In this document: one piece after another, positions 8,634 to 45,070 of the stretch
Numbering within the stretch: position 1 is the first letter of the stretch
Layout: every line of letters starts with the position of its first letter
Origin: Gomphosphaeria aponina SAG 52.96 = DSM 107014
GTDB lineage: Bacteria; Cyanobacteriota; Cyanobacteriia; Cyanobacteriales; Gomphosphaeriaceae
Length of the DNA: 64,000 bases
Direction of reading: 5' to 3'
Assembly (NCBI GenBank): GCA_016903655.1
Contig: JADQBC010000001.1
Location: forward strand, 13,371-77,370
Made by a program: the position numbers and the translations under genes
The notes under the pieces: generated by a model
Databases searched by the model: none
The model's input: the letters and a program-made list of their open reading frames with translations, nothing else
Told to the model about the DNA's origin: nothing

Positions 8634-9857
8634 TTAAGGAACAAGACGAACAAACTTTTTCTTCCCTACTTGTAAAACCTTGTTTTCAAGTAAACTAGGG
8701 GAGTGAAAAGAGAGATTAACATCATCAAGGCGATCGCCATCTAAACGTACCGCCCCTCCTTGAATTTGGCGGCGGCCATCCCCACTACTTTTACACAAAC
8801 CACTAGCATTAAGAATATAGAAAATCGGGGCAGGAAACTCTATTTTTGCCAGAGAAAATTCTGGTATTTTTTCTGCATTACTTGCTGTTCCCCCAGCAAT
8901 TGCTATATTAGCCTGCATTGCCCTCTGAGCTGCCTCCCTACCATGATATTGGCAAGTAATAGTTAAAGCCAATTCCCGCTGGCGATCGCGGGGATTTGTT
9001 GGTAATTTCTCCCCAGGTAAATCTGTCAATAGTTCAAAATACTGCGCCAGCAAATTATCAGGAGTTTTTTCCAATTTCCCATACATAATAGAAGCATGTT
9101 CTGTCAACCCAACATAATTATTCAGAGACTTAGACATTTTCTGAACCCCATCAGTCCCCAATAAAATAGGTAACAACAAGCCAAACTGAGGTTTTTGACC
9201 AAAATGGCGTTGTAAGTCCCTACCCACAGCAATATTAAACTTCTGGTCAGTACCTCCAAGTTCAACATCAGATTCTACAGCCACAGAATCATACCCCTGC
9301 ATCAAAGGATACATAAACTCATGGAGATAGATGGGGTTTTCCTGGTGATAACGTTCAGCAAAACCCTCCTTCGCCAACATTTGCCCCACAGTCATAGTAG
9401 AGAGCAACTCCAGAATTTTTGCCAAATCCAACTTAGACAACCACTCTGAGTTATAGCGAACTTCCAAACGTCCTGGGGTAGTAAAATCCAAAATAGGGCG
9501 TAACTGGTTAAGATAGTCCTGAGCATTTTCCTGAACTTGTGCCGTAGTTAACTGACGACGCACCTCTGATTTTCCTGTTGGATCACCAATTTGGGCAGTA
9601 AAATCCCCAATAATGAGAACAGCAGTATGACCAGCATCCTGAAAAGCGCGTAACTTACGGAAAGGAATACTATGACCCAAATGAAGATCAGCCCCAGTCG
9701 GGTCAATTCCCAACTTTACTCGCAAAGGCCGATCTATCTGTGCTAAAAATTGAGCCAAATTCTCATCAGGGTTTTGAGATTCAGGCTGATTAGGAAAAAT
9801 TTCATGAGTTCCCCGATATAGCCAAGGAAATTTTTGGTTATTTTCTCTAATATCCAT
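8634..9857 (-). CDS. tyrS: Tyrosine--tRNA ligase
   Basis: 407 aa with HLGH (HIGH-type) and KMSKS motifs and a C-terminal S4-like domain. Confidence 0.95.
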
Positions 9858-9873
9858 TTATAAGTTCAACTGG

Positions 9874-10078
9874 GTTGATAGTTGATAGTTGATAGTTGAT
9901 AGTTGATAGTTGATAGTTGATAGTTGATAGTCGGCTATGAACCATTATAATAGGTTGATAGTTGATAGTTGATAGTTGATAGTTGATAGTTGATAGTCGG
10001 CTATGAACCATCAACCATTATGATAGTTGATAGTTGATAGTCGGCTATGAACCATCAACCATCAACCATCAACCATTA
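9874..10078. repeat. STRR-like heptamer array filling the tyrS / PBP divergent intergenic region
   Basis: (GTTGATA)x8 + GTCGGCTATGAACCAT, then (GTTGATA)x6 + the same core, then about 2.5 units + the core + (CAACCAT)x4. Confidence 0.9.
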
Positions 10079-10091
10079 ACGAAAGAAGCTA

Positions 10092-12014
10092 GTGTCTTTT
10101 AGCACCCTTGAGAAACAAGAAGAATTGAAAAAGAAATTAGAACCTGTAGCTCGCTTTTCCCTGGGAGTTGCCAAGGTAGCTGGGGGAACCATCCTGGGGC
10201 TGAGTATGTTAGTGACTACAGTTGTGGCAGGAGGAGTAGTGGGTTTAGCCCTCAGCTTTCGTAACCTGCCCGATGTGAGGATACTGCGAAGTTATGTACC
10301 GACAGAAACCAGCTATATTTATGACGTTAAAGGAAGGCTCCTCACCAGTCTTCATGGAGAAGCTCATCGGAAAGTAGTCAAACTCGATGATATTTCACCC
10401 CAATTGAAACAAGCCGTAATTGCTGTAGAAGACAGTCACTTTTATCAACATGATGGCATTTATCCTAATAGTATTGCGCGGGCCTTTTTGGTTAACTGGC
10501 AACAAGGGGGAGTATCTCAAGGTGCTTCAACTTTAACCATGCAGCTTGTGAAAAATCTCTTCCTCTCCCGTGAGCGAGTATTTACGCGCAAACTAGCTGA
10601 AGCAGTGCTAGCAATTAGAGTAGAACAAATATTTACCAAAGACGAAATTTTAGAAATGTACCTCAATAACATTTATTGGGGTCACAACAGTTATGGAGTA
10701 GAAATTGCAGCAGAAAGCTACTTCAACAAATCAGCTTCTGAATTAACCTTAGCAGAAGCAACCATGATGGCGGGATTAATCCAAGCCCCAGAACAATACA
10801 GTCCATTTATCAACTACAAAGAAACAAAAGAACGGCAAGCAGTTGTACTGAAGCGAATGGAAGAGTTGGGTTGGATCACTGCACCAGAAGCAGAAGCAGC
10901 TTTTAAAGAACCTTTGTTAGTAGCCAAACCTACTGCGTGGCAAAATAGCAAAGCTCCTTATGTTACAGATTTGGTAATTGAGCAATTAAATGAGATATTT
11001 GGGCCAGAAGCAGTGCTGAAAGGAGGAATACGGGTTCAGACCACCGTTGACTATAATTTACAGCAAATGGCACAAGCAGTGGTGCAAAAAGAACATAAAA
11101 ATTTGCTCAATCAAGGAGTTGATGCTGATCAAGTAGCCTTAGTAGCTGTAGATCCGCGCACTCATTTTGTTAAAGCTGTTGTAGGCGGTGTAGATTACAA
11201 TAAAAGTAAGTTTAACCGAGCTACCCAGTCAAGGCGACAGCCAGGGTCTTCTTTTAAGCCCTTCGTTTATTATACAGCTTTTGCTTCTGGAAAATATACA
11301 CCAGCATCGCTCATTGAGGATCGTGAGGTCAAATATCGCGATGGTGACAACTATTATATTCCGCAAAACTATGGCGGGAAGTTTTTAGGCCAGATGAACC
11401 TGACAGAAGCATTAATTCAATCCCGTAACATTCCTGCCATAGAACTTGGGCAAGCAGTAGGCTTAGATAAAGTTATTGCCGCTACTCGTGCTGTTGGTAT
11501 CAAAAGTCCCCTAGAAGCAGTGGTATCTCTACCTTTAGGCTCTATGGGGGTGACACCCTTAGAAATGGCAGGGGCTTATGCCACTTTTGCCAGTAATGGT
11601 TGGCATTGTGAACCAACCATGATTTTAAGAGTTACCGATAGCAGCGGCAAAGTTTTAATTGACAATACACCTCAACCCAAGCTAGTTTTAAATCCCTGGG
11701 CAACTGCTACCCTGACCTCTGAGTTACAAAAGGTAATTGAAAGCGGTACGGGAAGAAAAGCTAAAATTGATCGCCAGGCGGCGGGGAAAACAGGAACTAC
11801 CAACTCAGAGCGAGATGTGTGGTTTGTGGGGTATGTTCCCCAACTAGCAACAGCAGTTTGGGTAGGTAACGATGACTACAGACCCATAGGCAAAGGCATT
11901 ACGGGAGGCGACCACGCTGCCCCCATTTGGCGGGCCTTTATGCTAGAAGCACTCAAAAATGAGCCTGTAGAAGAATTTACAGCGCCATCAGCTTTCTCTA
12001 GGCCTCAGCCTTGA
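10092..12014 (+). CDS. Class A penicillin-binding protein (transglycosylase/transpeptidase)
   Basis: 640 aa with a GTG start, an N-terminal TM segment, GT51 motifs (EDSHFYQHDG, GASTLTMQ), and transpeptidase motifs SSFKP and KTGTT. Confidence 0.9.
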   Translation: MSFSTLEKQEELKKKLEPVARFSLGVAKVAGGTILGLSMLVTTVVAGGVVGLALSFRNLPDVRILRSYVPTETSYIYDVKGRLLTSLHGEAHRKVVKLDDISPQLKQAVIAVEDSHFYQHDGIYPNSIARAFLVNWQQGGVSQGASTLTMQLVKNLFLSRERVFTRKLAEAVLAIRVEQIFTKDEILEMYLNNIYWGHNSYGVEIAAESYFNKSASELTLAEATMMAGLIQAPEQYSPFINYKETKERQAVVLKRMEELGWITAPEAEAAFKEPLLVAKPTAWQNSKAPYVTDLVIEQLNEIFGPEAVLKGGIRVQTTVDYNLQQMAQAVVQKEHKNLLNQGVDADQVALVAVDPRTHFVKAVVGGVDYNKSKFNRATQSRRQPGSSFKPFVYYTAFASGKYTPASLIEDREVKYRDGDNYYIPQNYGGKFLGQMNLTEALIQSRNIPAIELGQAVGLDKVIAATRAVGIKSPLEAVVSLPLGSMGVTPLEMAGAYATFASNGWHCEPTMILRVTDSSGKVLIDNTPQPKLVLNPWATATLTSELQKVIESGTGRKAKIDRQAAGKTGTTNSERDVWFVGYVPQLATAVWVGNDDYRPIGKGITGGDHAAPIWRAFMLEALKNEPVEEFTAPSAFSRPQP

Positions 12015-12332
12015 TTAATTTTCAATTTCTGATTTCATGCGCTCTAGTGTCAAGTGCATTTGGTCAAACATTTGCTGAGGAGTAATGCCAACCTGACTAA
12101 GTTGAGTTTTGAGCTGCTCGATGGTCATTTTTGCCATAAAATCTTCTGAAAGTTCAAAGCGCTTCATAAATATTTTGTAGCGCTCCATGAGAGCTTCCAT
12201 TTTTTCGATAAAAATTTTTTTCCCTTCTCGGTCAAATTTCCCATACTCCCCCCCCAACTGCGTTAGGGATTGATAATCTTCAAATAATTGTTTGGCTTCT
12301 TGCTGGACCACCTCAGAATCAAAAAATCCCAT
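12015..12332 (-). CDS. Small conserved cyanobacterial protein (DUF1825-like, from memory)
   Basis: 105-aa helical acidic protein beginning MGFFDSEVVQQEAKQLFEDYQ. The family assignment is from recollection only. Confidence 0.55.
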   Translation of the reverse strand: MGFFDSEVVQQEAKQLFEDYQSLTQLGGEYGKFDREGKKIFIEKMEALMERYKIFMKRFELSEDFMAKMTIEQLKTQLSQVGITPQQMFDQMHLTLERMKSEIEN

Positions 12333-23181: not shown

Positions 23182-24525
23182 ATGGCATTATCAAATTCAT
23201 CTTTAATCAAAATTGCTACATTGGTGCAACCTTTCCGTCGCTTAATTGGAATAGTAGCAGATTTACGTTTAGCAATTGTTTTGTTGCTGGCGATCGCTTT
23301 GTGTAGCATTAGTGGCACTGTAATTGAGCAGGGAGAGTCCCTGAAATTTTACCAAGCAAACTACCCAGAAGCTCCTGCTTTGTTTGGTTTTCTCAGTTGG
23401 AAAGTTCTCCTGGTGCTGGGATTAAATCATGTTTATAGTACTTGGTGGTTTTTAGCTTTACTGGTGTTGTTTGGGACAAGTCTTACTGCTTGTACTTTTA
23501 CGAGACAATTTCCTGCACTGAAAGCTGCTCGGAATTGGAAATTTTATGACAAACCTCGTCAGTTTGAAAAATTAGCTTTAAGTGCAGAATTAAATACTGG
23601 TTCTCTCTCTACTTTAATCCCTTTATTAGAAAGAAAAGGATATAAGGTTTTTCAAGAGGAAAACTCTCTTTATGCGCGGAAAGGAATTATTGGACGCATT
23701 GGCCCGATTGTTGTCCATGCTAGTATGTTAATTATTCTGGCAGGTTCAATTTGGGGAGTAATGACAGGATTTTTAGCTCAGGAAATGGTGCCGAGTGGGG
23801 ATAGTTTTCAAGTAAAAAATATCTTGGAAGCAGGGCCGTTAGCTCAAGGGCAAATTCCGCAAGATTGGTCAGTGAGAGTAAATCGGTTTTGGATAGAATA
23901 TACCCCAAAAGGTGATATTGATCAGTTTTATTCGGATTTATCTGTGATTAATAAAGCGGGGGAAGAGTTAAAACGGAAAACTATTTATGTGAATGAACCT
24001 TTACGGTATCAAGGGGTGACTTTGTATCAAACTAATTGGAGTATTGCTGCTGTTAAGGTACAATTAAATAATAGTCCGATTTTTACTCTCCCAATGGCAA
24101 AATTAGATACTCAAGGAAAAGGCAATATTTGGGGGACTTGGATACCAACAAAACCAGATTTAAGTGAGGGTGGTGCTTTGTTAGCTAGGGATTTACAGGG
24201 GACAATGTTGGTATATGATGCAACGGGAAAGTTGGTGGGTGCTGTCCGTCCTGGTATGACAACAGAAGTTAATGGTGTTCAGGTAAAAATTCACGATTTA
24301 ATTGGGAGTACTGGTTTGCAAATTAAGGCTGATCCAGGAGTACCAATAGTTTATACTGGTTTTGGATTATTAATGGTGGGAGTGGTGATGAGTTATGTGT
24401 CTCATGCTCAAGTTTGGGCACTGGAAGCAGGAGATCGGTTTTATCTTGGGGGACGCACAAACCGCGCTCAAGTTAGTATGGAAAAGGAAATGATGGCAAT
24501 ATTAGAACAGTTGGAGCATTGTTGA
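23182..24525 (+). CDS. ccs1: Cytochrome c biogenesis protein Ccs1/CcsB (ResB family)
   Basis: Matches the ResB-like pattern ([22 protein letters not shown]). I prefer the ATG at 23182 (MALSNSS...) over the track start at 23140. Confidence 0.85.
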
Positions 24526-24624
24526 TAGTTGATGGTTAACTGATAGAGGTAAAGATGGGTGGCAATCTGGATTAAAAGTATTTAAAAAATGTGATGGTGA
24601 GTAACAAGTTGGGAGAATTATATT

Positions 24625-37773: not shown

Positions 37774-37865
37774 CTTACACCAGTCAATCGTTGATGGTTA
37801 ATTGTTGATTGTTCACACTTTCTGATTTCAACCATCAACCAGTGATTTATTTTTTATCAGGTTCT

Positions 37866-44054: not shown

Positions 44055-44133
44055 GTTGATGGTTGATGGTTGGTGGTTGGTGGTTGGTGGTTGATAGCCA
44101 TGAACGATGAACGATGAACGATTAACCATCAAC
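44055..44133. repeat. STRR-like heptamer array related to 9874-10078
   Basis: (GTTGATG)x2 (GTTGGTG)x3 GTTGATA GCCATGAAC (GATGAAC)x2 GATTAAC CATCAAC. The core GATAGCCATGAAC resembles GATAGTCGGCTATGAAC at 9926. Confidence 0.75.
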
Positions 44134-45070
44134 AATGAACTATTCTGAGTTTGTGTAAAAGCTTGAGAAAGTGTGGTGGGAGAGGGGCGATCGCTTCAAT
44201 TATTTCTCCTGATACTGGATGGTTAAGGGTTAATTTATGTGCATGGAGAACTTGACCTGGTAAATTTACTCCCAGACTCCCTCCAGAACTATAAACAGGA
44301 TCAGCGACGATGGGATGACCAATATAACTACTATGAACCCTTATTTGATGGGTGCGTCCTGTTTCTAAACGAAACTGCATGAGGGTGTACTTCCCCAATC
44401 TTTCCAAAATTTGCCAGTGGGTAACAGCAGCTCTTCCCCCCTTGGCTTGGGAAACTACTGCCATTTTCTGCCGCTCTACAGGATGACGACCAATGGGAAG
44501 ATCAATTTTCCCACTACTTTCAGCAGGAACACCATGAACTACGGCTAAATACTCTCGCTTGGCTGTTTTCGCTTTCAGTTGAGCTTGGAGATGTTGATGG
44601 GCTAATTCAGTTTTCGCTACGACTAAAGCACCGCTAGTATCTTTATCGAGTCGATGGACAATACCAGGACGGAGAATATCCCCAATCCCTGCCAAGTCAG
44701 CACAATGAAATAAGAGAGCGTGAACTAGAGTACCTGTTGCGTGACCTGGAGCAGGATGAACCACTAAACCTGGAGGTTTATTGATAATAATGAGAAATTC
44801 ATCCTCATAGAGAATATCTAGAGGTATGGGTTCTGGTTGTAAGTTTAACGGTTGGGGGGAAGGGATAGTCAAGTGGAGGCGATCGCCTTCCCGCACCGTT
44901 GTTTTTTTGGCAGTACATATTTGACCATTGAGTTTTACCTGTCCCTGTTCAATTAACTTAACGAGACGAGAACGGGAAATTGTGGGGAGTTGTTGGGCTA
45001 AACAGCGATCGATGCGTTCTCCCATCACAACTTCTATTGCTAGAACCTGAGCCAAAATAGGAACTGCCAT
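44129..45070 (-). CDS. rluD: RluA-family 23S rRNA pseudouridine synthase (RluD-like)
   Basis: S4 domain (RIDRCLAQQL...SRSRLVKLIEQGQVKLNG) and the catalytic motif HRLDKDTSG. Confidence 0.85.
   Translation of the reverse strand: MAVPILAQVLAIEVVMGERIDRCLAQQLPTISRSRLVKLIEQGQVKLNGQICTAKKTTVREGDRLHLTIPSPQPLNLQPEPIPLDILYEDEFLIIINKPPGLVVHPAPGHATGTLVHALLFHCADLAGIGDILRPGIVHRLDKDTSGALVVAKTELAHQHLQAQLKAKTAKREYLAVVHGVPAESSGKIDLPIGRHPVERQKMAVVSQAKGGRAAVTHWQILERLGKYTLMQFRLETGRTHQIRVHSSYIGHPIVADPVYSSGGSLGVNLPGQVLHAHKLTLNHPVSGEIIEAIAPLPPHFLKLLHKLRIVHC

Follow-up and report, generated by a model that had tools for sequence, protein, structure and literature searches.

How does a pair of housekeeping genes fare when a tandem repeat takes over nearly all of the promoter region they share, and does the repeat then regulate them or simply sit there? 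The spacer between tyrS and a class A PBP gene raises this question in the window, the 64,000-nt stretch of DNA analysed here. The two genes diverge from a 234-bp spacer, 88% of which is covered by an array of heptamers. On one side, tyrS (8634..9857, minus strand) encodes a tyrosyl-tRNA synthetase of 407 aa assigned by the Pfam domain tRNA-synt_1b; on the other, the PBP gene (10092..12014, plus strand) encodes a 640-aa protein with Transgly and Transpeptidase domains, starts with GTG and has N-terminal codons that are conserved in relatives. The assembly is a MAG of 3.67 Mb in 146 contigs, with 39% G+C and 76% complete. Within this 76%-complete MAG, tyrS encodes the only TyrRS that we found, and its neighbour is the only Transgly-domain, class A PBP gene; another tRNA-synt_1b match, on contig C36, is presumably TrpRS. 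Their presence in single copy agrees with the remark, made in the first-pass annotation, that both genes are essential.

A direct read of the array (9874-10080) bears out the three modules that had been proposed for the spacer, each consisting of (GTTGATA)n followed by a 16-nt core, gives n as 8, 6 and 2, and places (CAACCAT)3 at the end. The four closing CAACCAT units described earlier are reached only if the core-terminal GAACCAT is counted; otherwise there are three. Next to the tyrS start lies a 16-nt remnant of non-repeat spacer (9858..9873, no strand assigned). Module 1 opens with a forward arm of eight perfect GTTGATA units (9874..9929, plus strand), read directly and detected by TRF, and continues into the first copy of the core, GTCGGCTATGAACCAT (9930..9945, plus strand), which would serve both as a hairpin turn and as a 16-nt promoter spacer. 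The sole non-heptamer stretch within the array, TATAATAG (9946-9953), forms part of the palindrome ATTATAAT (9944..9951, no strand assigned), which presents a TATAAT -10 hexamer on both strands at 87 nt from the tyrS ATG.

Module 2 (9954..10018, plus strand) comprises (GTTGATA)6 at 9954-9995, core copy 2 at 9996-10011 and a single CAACCAT at 10012-10018. It is joined to module 3 by the hybrid unit TATGATA (10019..10025, plus strand), which combines the TA of a reverse unit with the TGATA of a forward unit. Module 3 (10026..10080, plus strand) consists of (GTTGATA)2 at 10026-10039, core copy 3 at 10040-10055, (CAACCAT)3 at 10056-10076 and a terminal TAAC. Only the last 11 nt of the PBP leader (10081..10091, plus strand) lie outside the repeat. 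The 16-nt core holds no ORF, and no PF05635 gene lies between the arms. The minus strand is open in all frames across the array, and an N-terminal extension of tyrS through it is ruled out by an in-frame TAA at 9858-9860; the array is non-coding because this codon, directly upstream of the tyrS ATG, closes the frame.

The array stays in phase from end to end because the core, read in the 7-nt register, resolves into two degenerate heptamers, GTCGGCT and ATGAACC. TRF detects periods of 7 (17.3 copies), 66 (2.4 copies, 92%) and 44 nt (2.0 copies, 100%), and the two-unit 14-mer occurs 14 times in the window with at most one mismatch, against 0.05 occurrences expected from shuffled sequences. The stretch 9977..10062 (plus strand) is perfectly 44-bp periodic (100% matches in TRF, confirmed by script), which points to a recent segmental duplication that copied an entire module. 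Along its length the array passes from forward units to units that are reverse-complementary to GTTGATG. CAACCAT is the reverse complement of a rotation of GTTGATG and one base off GTTGATA, which gives the array real hairpin potential: a forward and a reverse heptamer pair through six base pairs and one A.C mismatch. This upholds the earlier description of CAACCAT as a near reverse complement of the first repeat with the potential to form hairpins, and the whole spacer, folded as single-stranded DNA, reaches -35 kcal/mol (z = -7.5).

A consensus scan predicts a sigma-70-type promoter directed toward the PBP gene, TTGATA-N16-TATAAT (9924..9951, plus strand), which matches the consensus at 11/12 positions. 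Its -35 hexamer is provided by the last heptamer of module 1 and its spacer by the core. The same scan shows a periodic weak match, TTGATA-N17-GATAGT, within the arrays. On the minus (tyrS) strand it returned no full promoter match, and the palindromic TATAAT stands there without a -35 hexamer. The proposal that both promoters lie inside the array is therefore plausible for the PBP side, where the 11/12 site is found, and lacks a full promoter match on the tyrS side. No intrinsic terminator is predicted in the spacer.

The predicted promoter would place modules 2 and 3 in the PBP leader. If transcription starts just past TATAAT, the transcript is predicted to form a hairpin of ~50 pairs in which A.C mismatches recur at 7-nt intervals (9961..10080, plus strand), and this hairpin would end ~8 nt before the purine-rich GAAAGAAG. 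The RNA from 9958-10110 is predicted to fold at -62.7 kcal/mol, compared with -26.6 kcal/mol for shuffled sequences (z = -10.6). The tyrS-side leader (9940 down to 9840) is a CUAUCAA repeat and is predicted to be unstructured (z ~0). A search of the array against Rfam 15 yielded no family at the gathering threshold, and the sub-threshold matches were confined to plant and animal miRNA precursor models, which are generic long hairpins.

How singular is this array? A census of the module across the whole assembly, as suggested by the first-pass annotation, identified it as a common STRR-type element. TRF returned 968 period-7 rows; merged, these give 750 loci spanning ~35 kb. Most frequent among the units are GTTGATG (205 rows) and GTTGATA (89 rows), which in one orientation or the other build the tyrS/PBP array. 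By length this array ranks 14th, the longest one elsewhere measuring 525 bp. The pattern (GTTGATR)4 has 662 overlapping matches in this genome; GTTGATA reversed is its own rotation, so the reversed pattern offers no independent control. The relatives that had been reported within the window are present as claimed and belong to the same superfamily. They comprise a hairpin module with GTTGATG/GTTGGTG units, a core with GCCATGAAC and GATGAAC-type units (44055..44140, plus strand, TRF), a small element in which a loop separates short forward and reverse arms (37785..37845, plus strand, TRF), and ~three GTTGATA/GTTGATG-type units (24520..24545, plus strand).

The modules obey a rule of arm order. 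A forward arm (GTTRAT-type) followed by a short core and a reverse arm occurs 103 times, versus 12 times for the opposite order, and because both arrangements are strand-symmetric this bias is a genuine rule. The core family GT[CT]NNN[CT]ATGAAC[CG]AT has 26 matches in the genome, with a dominant form, GTCTTCCATGAACGAT, at at least nine loci, and the GTCGGCT core variant is restricted to the three copies in the tyrS/PBP array and one on contig C5. Composite arrays recur: five modules lie at C24:6453-6784, three at C79:24699-24939 and three or more at C24:13337-13861, and multi-module arrays are distributed over contigs C24, C79, C123, C28, C93 and C125. The five-module array on C24 contains a hybrid junction (TA + TGATG) of the same kind as TATGATA in the window. 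Since whole modules have multiplied elsewhere and the C24 junction is alike, we interpret the three structured modules between tyrS and the PBP gene as a recurrent product of the repeat system and not as a special design.

Heptamer loci are predominantly intergenic: 559 of the 750 lie between genes, in gaps that make up ~15% of bases under crude ORF calls. These calls are the longest non-overlapping ORFs of at least 100 aa and give 2765 genes and 81% coding sequence. Among the gaps so defined, heptamers account for 2.5% of bases in divergent gaps (n = 423, 22 of them with an array of at least 50 bp), 5.6% in tandem gaps (n = 1562, 119 with such an array) and 7.8% in convergent gaps (n = 389, 47 with such an array). 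The difference between divergent and convergent gaps in the occurrence of these arrays (22/423 versus 47/389) is significant (Fisher p = 6e-4), and arrays of at least 100 bp are found in 5 divergent versus 22 convergent gaps. In tandem gaps the array lies a median of 17 nt from the upstream stop and 33 nt from the downstream start, with start calls that are unreliable. Heptamers thus lie preferentially at the 3' ends of genes and less often in gaps that hold a two-way promoter. The first-pass annotation had entertained a common neutral STRR with no positional bias; the element is indeed common and of STRR type, but its placement is biased, away from divergent gaps and toward 3' ends. The tyrS/PBP spacer, at 88%, is the most occupied of the 423 divergent gaps, followed by C99:11976-12124 (85%) and C55:26896-27142 (76%).

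Comparison with relatives indicates what the array displaced. The TyrS proteins of the same-order genomes compared are at most 76% identical to that of the window, and the nearest relative that we found, L031, comes from a metagenome and has a TyrS that is 84% identical. The best named TyrS relatives are Potamolinea, Oscillatoria, Coleofasciculaceae and Gloeothece, in keeping with a cyanobacterial host. A search for a second strain by protein left the window TyrS alone in its cluster (one sequence, one contig) among 5.8 billion protein clusters, and an arm-plus-core 23-mer had no exact matches in genome or metagenome contig collections. The divergence of tyrS and the PBP gene is old: ~20 of 29 same-order genomes retain it, their spacers measure ~100-460 bp, and none of those ~20 spacers holds a heptamer array. 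L031 has the same gene order (DUF1825, PBP, tyrS, pyrF), with a tyrS-PBP spacer of 530 bp that is devoid of a period-7 repeat and carries a 95-bp tandem duplication.

The heptamer itself travels widely. (GTTGATA)5 is found in Rivularia, Chamaesiphon, Prochloron, Sphaerospermopsis, Scytonema, Stigonema, Spirulina, Plectonema and Tolypothrix, and beyond cyanobacteria in Chryseobacterium and other Bacteroidota. (GTTGATR)4 is present in 6 of 30 relatives, the genome studied here having by far the most. The arm-plus-core pattern, on the other hand, has 12 occurrences in this genome, and a scan of 300 other same-order genomes, representing 118 other genera, did not find it. The repeat class is therefore common, but this module family and its insertion between tyrS and the PBP gene are lineage-specific and young, since the heptamer is widespread and the arm-plus-core combination was not found in relatives.

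Relatives also reveal which signals the array spares. On the tyrS side they share a -10-like box, with a consensus near ACTATAAT followed by TGCAAAAA, that keeps ~60-100 nt from the tyrS start at any spacer length. L031 carries an identical ATTATAAT, ~84-91 nt from the tyrS ATG, which aligns with the copy in the window, and homology of the remnant at 9858..9873 to L031 is confined to the first few bases past the tyrS start codon. On the PBP side, the leader is strongly conserved among relatives as a T-run, then GAGTGAGGAAGTGAAATCGCC, then the GTG start. There, homology to L031 restarts at GAAAGAA (10079-10085), within the last bases of the array, and the GAGG of the conserved Shine-Dalgarno region is replaced in the window by repeat sequence. 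The TATAAT box may be ancestral, or it may have arisen from a TATGAT-type module junction plus one base change; the second origin is possible because junctions on C24 give TATGAT-type sequences in the same register. A junction-derived TATAAT would weaken the notion, developed below, that essential signals outlived the insertion.

The array belongs to the cyanobacterial STRR class, in that its 7-nt tandem units are dispersed, mostly intergenic and carried by a cyanobacterial host. STRR have been known since 1990 without an accepted function, the first description being reportedly that of Mazel and colleagues, in that year, from Calothrix PCC 7601. GTTGATA and GTTGATG presumably match none of the three Calothrix STRR units, and membership of the class does not normally require identity of the unit. 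The repeats of this genome share with STRR the tandem 7-bp units, the hundreds of dispersed and mainly intergenic copies and the frequent hairpin potential. STRR are classically elements of filamentous-type cyanobacterial genomes. Two features set the tyrS/PBP copy apart: it is composed of three modules that together replace almost an entire divergent promoter gap, and its core variant is absent from the 300 other same-order genomes.

Published cases offer several points of comparison. Heptanucleotides of Calothrix are mentioned by PMC4692102. [quoted passage not shown] The GGGNATC-type intergenic heptamer arrays of Xanthomonas and Nostoc PCC 7120 are likewise highly enriched genome-wide, and close relatives differ in the length and sequence of these arrays (Rehm et al. 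2015, PMC4692102). Their units, rich in G, fold into quadruplexes, whereas the units described here are AT-rich and would form duplex hairpins.

How did the array come to occupy this gap? Its last part, 10021..10080 on the plus strand, is identical over 60/60 nt to a single-module element on the minus strand of contig C5 (~12140-12210). Because of this identity, and because their core variant exists nowhere else in the genome, the two loci share a recent origin, by copying or gene conversion and not by independent slippage alone. That the array later grew in place is indicated by its perfect arms and by its 44-bp periodicity, which is also perfect. On this evidence we consider it likely that the array is an ordinary, tolerated and recently expanded STRR-type hairpin repeat which occupies, and has partly rebuilt, the divergent promoter.

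In the course of events that we propose, one hairpin module of the form (GTTGATA)n - GTCGGCTATGAACCAT - (CAACCAT)m would have entered or arisen in the tyrS/PBP spacer. Its arms would have been lengthened by replication slippage, and the modules multiplied through segmental tandem duplication in units of 66 and 44 bp, until nearly all of the ancestral spacer was replaced. The locus would have tolerated this because essential signals survive or are recreated. These putative signals are the ATTATAAT -10 box between modules 1 and 2, for which the adjoining heptamer would supply a TTGATA -35 hexamer at 16-nt spacing, and the 13 nt immediately before the PBP start, which appear to have been retained. 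Transcripts toward the PBP gene would then begin with a long heptamer-armed hairpin leader, and those toward tyrS with an unstructured CUAUCAA-repeat leader. What we observed directly is the anatomy of the array, the family to which it belongs across the genome, the bias in its placement, its absence from this spacer in relatives and the promoter-like site; from these we infer in which order the events took place, that the promoter is used and that no regulatory role was selected.

Several points count against this explanation. Of all 423 divergent gaps, the most occupied is the one that precedes the sole TyrRS gene and the sole class A PBP gene seen in the assembly, and a selected role is conceivable because an array would be least expected here if it were harmful. 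Moreover, the -35/-10 geometry is very good (11/12), and the predicted leader hairpin (z = -10.6) resembles that of hmw1A, the closest known mechanism for the tuning of both genes by copy number that the first-pass annotation had suggested. At hmw1A and hmw2A of Haemophilus influenzae the heptamer (ATCTTTC)n forms a simple sequence repeat (PMC12721329, PMC8262952). The hmw1A repeat is transcribed into a long 5'-UTR hairpin that is processed by RNase III, and higher repeat numbers go with lower expression (PMC12721329).

By analogy, the tyrS/PBP array could be a contingency locus, a copy-number rheostat in which slippage, in steps of 7 nt, would tune expression by altering how long and how stable the hairpin of the PBP leader is and how long the tyrS leader is, a reading that we regard as unlikely. 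Both modules 2 and 3 would be transcribed from the predicted promoter upstream of them, the resulting leader is modelled as a hairpin of ~50 pairs that might be an RNase III substrate, and the perfect repeats together with the perfect 44-bp duplication speak for recent change. Slippage in module 1 would presumably leave the promoter spacing undisturbed, because every heptamer would regenerate the -35 hexamer. Should the regulatory reading hold, the locus would share with its precedent, hmw1A (PMC12721329), a 7-nt repeat between promoter and start codon and a long 5' UTR hairpin with the repeats as one arm. Against it, the same repeats are found genome-wide, less often in divergent promoter gaps than in other places, and housekeeping genes are untypical targets of phase variation. 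hmw1A is a dedicated locus for a surface adhesin, unlike the tyrS/PBP repeat, which is one of ~750 and has housekeeping neighbours. At hmw1A the unit number has been demonstrated to be polymorphic and inversely related to expression, and the leader to be cleaved by RNase III, whereas all three traits are hypothetical for the tyrS/PBP locus. If the regulatory reading were true, the array would be the first hmw1A-like heptamer switch in cyanobacteria and a functional clue to STRR, which have gone unexplained for 35 years.

We attach a low probability to the view that the numbers of modules and copies are artefacts of the MAG assembly, with collapsed or expanded arms and a spurious 44-bp duplication in a repeat that is itself real. 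The assembly is fragmented (146 contigs) and 76% complete, and perfectly periodic stretches are error-prone in short-read assembly. However, the longest perfect stretches, of 56 and 86 bp, fall below the largest k-mers and the reads that assemblers usually work with, and arrays of up to 525 bp were assembled inside contigs. Seven contig ends fall inside arrays versus 6.5 expected, so contig ends are not enriched in arrays; on these numbers we rejected the idea that arrays break the assembly. The three modules, moreover, differ at their junctions.

Comparably improbable is the transposition into the spacer of a gene-less, MITE-like mobile element, either of the small-dispersed-repeat type or derived from heptamer-armed elements that carry a PF05635 gene, with slippage playing a minor part. 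Small dispersed repeats nested in tandem heptamers were reportedly described from Nostoc punctiforme by Elhai and colleagues in 2008, and by that account they resemble the present modules in having short unique cores within heptamer arrays and near-identical dispersed copies. The evidence for mobility in this genome, set beside those repeats, is one 60-nt identity between two loci, tyrS/PBP and contig C5. The dispersal of the core families over many loci and the strict arm order (103 versus 12) would also fit a mobile element. So would the one PF05635 gene of the genome (C22:9288-9605), which is bracketed by a heptamer array before it and an inverted ACTCCC remnant after it, though this array is built of another, GGGGAGT-type unit. 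Yet the loci inspected display no target-site duplication, fixed termini or common flanks, although repeat arms blur the ends, and we found no link to a transposase. Arm lengths vary at every locus, as slippage predicts. A MITE-like origin overlaps with the tolerated, recently expanded STRR-type repeat that we prefer and does not exclude it.

Finally, it is scarcely credible that a DNA cruciform extruded by the inverted arrays has a structural effect on the divergent promoter: compared with shuffled sequences, the spacer as a single strand does fold far more stably (z = -7.5), but the arms mismatch every 7 nt, the MFE structure is negligible in the ensemble, which makes a stable cruciform doubtful, the centroid keeps short local stems only, and imperfect arms with long central spacers are known to disfavour extrusion.

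Repeats of STRR type are well known in cyanobacteria, and what is unusual here is only their position in a two-way promoter. What our analysis mainly documents is a lineage whose load of hairpin-forming heptamer modules is exceptionally high and whose modules follow a clear rule of arm order. Within it, the tyrS/PBP locus constitutes a natural stress test, in which an array overwrote nearly the whole divergent gap before two single-copy housekeeping genes. A near-consensus promoter has been left in place or remade by the array, and part of a ribosome-binding region conserved across families has been lost to it. The locus bears on whether STRR repeats are merely tolerated or are able to act as promoter and leader modules.

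The heptamer hairpins of the window's own assembly (G000, a metagenome-assembled genome of 146 contigs) obey a strict arm-order rule. Across the whole assembly, the GTTRAT-type forward arm (R being A or G) leads in 103 hairpins and the reverse arm in 12; equally good folding is expected for either order. The strand carrying GTTGATA, at 9874-9995 of the window and in F-type arrays genome-wide, has all three reading frames stopped every 21 nt by TGA and TAG, and all three frames of the complementary TATCAAC strand are open.

Very long near-pure arrays of other heptamers lie on two further contigs of the assembly, namely about 48 GAGTAGG units at C142:22058-22392 and, at C53:15083-15368, about 33 GTTCATG units with AATCAAC units after them. 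The C53 array occupies the whole of the 279-bp gap that separates two same-strand genes. A third contig holds, within the stretch C22:9150-9660, the sole gene of the assembly for a PF05635 protein ('23S rRNA intervening sequence protein'), which sits between an ABC-transporter permease gene and the matching ATPase gene. Before the PF05635 gene lies an array of about 10 GGGGAGT/TGGGAGT units, and after it an ACTCCC remnant.

Among the tyrS/PBP spacers from genomes of the same order, eight (L002, L007, L008, L012, L014, L018, L020 and L025) share a box close to ACTATAAT-TGCAAAAA, located 60-100 nt from the tyrS start at every spacer length, and this box is probably a promoter for either tyrS or the PBP gene. 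The spacer of the nearest relative found (L031; TyrS 84% identical) carries, at L031:2735-2927, a tandem duplication of a 95-bp unit plus a partial third copy. Each copy bears ATTATAATGG and, about 30 nt further on, a GC-rich hairpin (GACAAGGGGC ... GCCCCTTGTC). The 95-bp repeat may represent either a small-RNA gene in repeated copies or an insertion of MITE-like type. The -10 region of the tyrS/PBP spacer was thus duplicated independently in two lineages.

Directly 5' of the PBP start in L002-L029, the leader and first codons comprise a T-run, GAGTGAGGAAGTGAAATCGCC and then GTG TCG TCT AGC AC, a region orthologous to positions 10060-10110 of the window. Even at third codon positions, these bases are near-identical in many cyanobacterial families, and such conservation at the base level suggests a control element acting in translation or at the RNA level. 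In the window, the upstream half of this conserved stretch is replaced by the heptamer repeat.

Runs of (GTTGATR)4 are also numerous in two genomes of the same order and other families, G007 and G022 (208 and 46 overlapping matches, respectively). They are absent from 24 of the 30 relatives searched, and the distribution of the repeat across families is therefore patchy.
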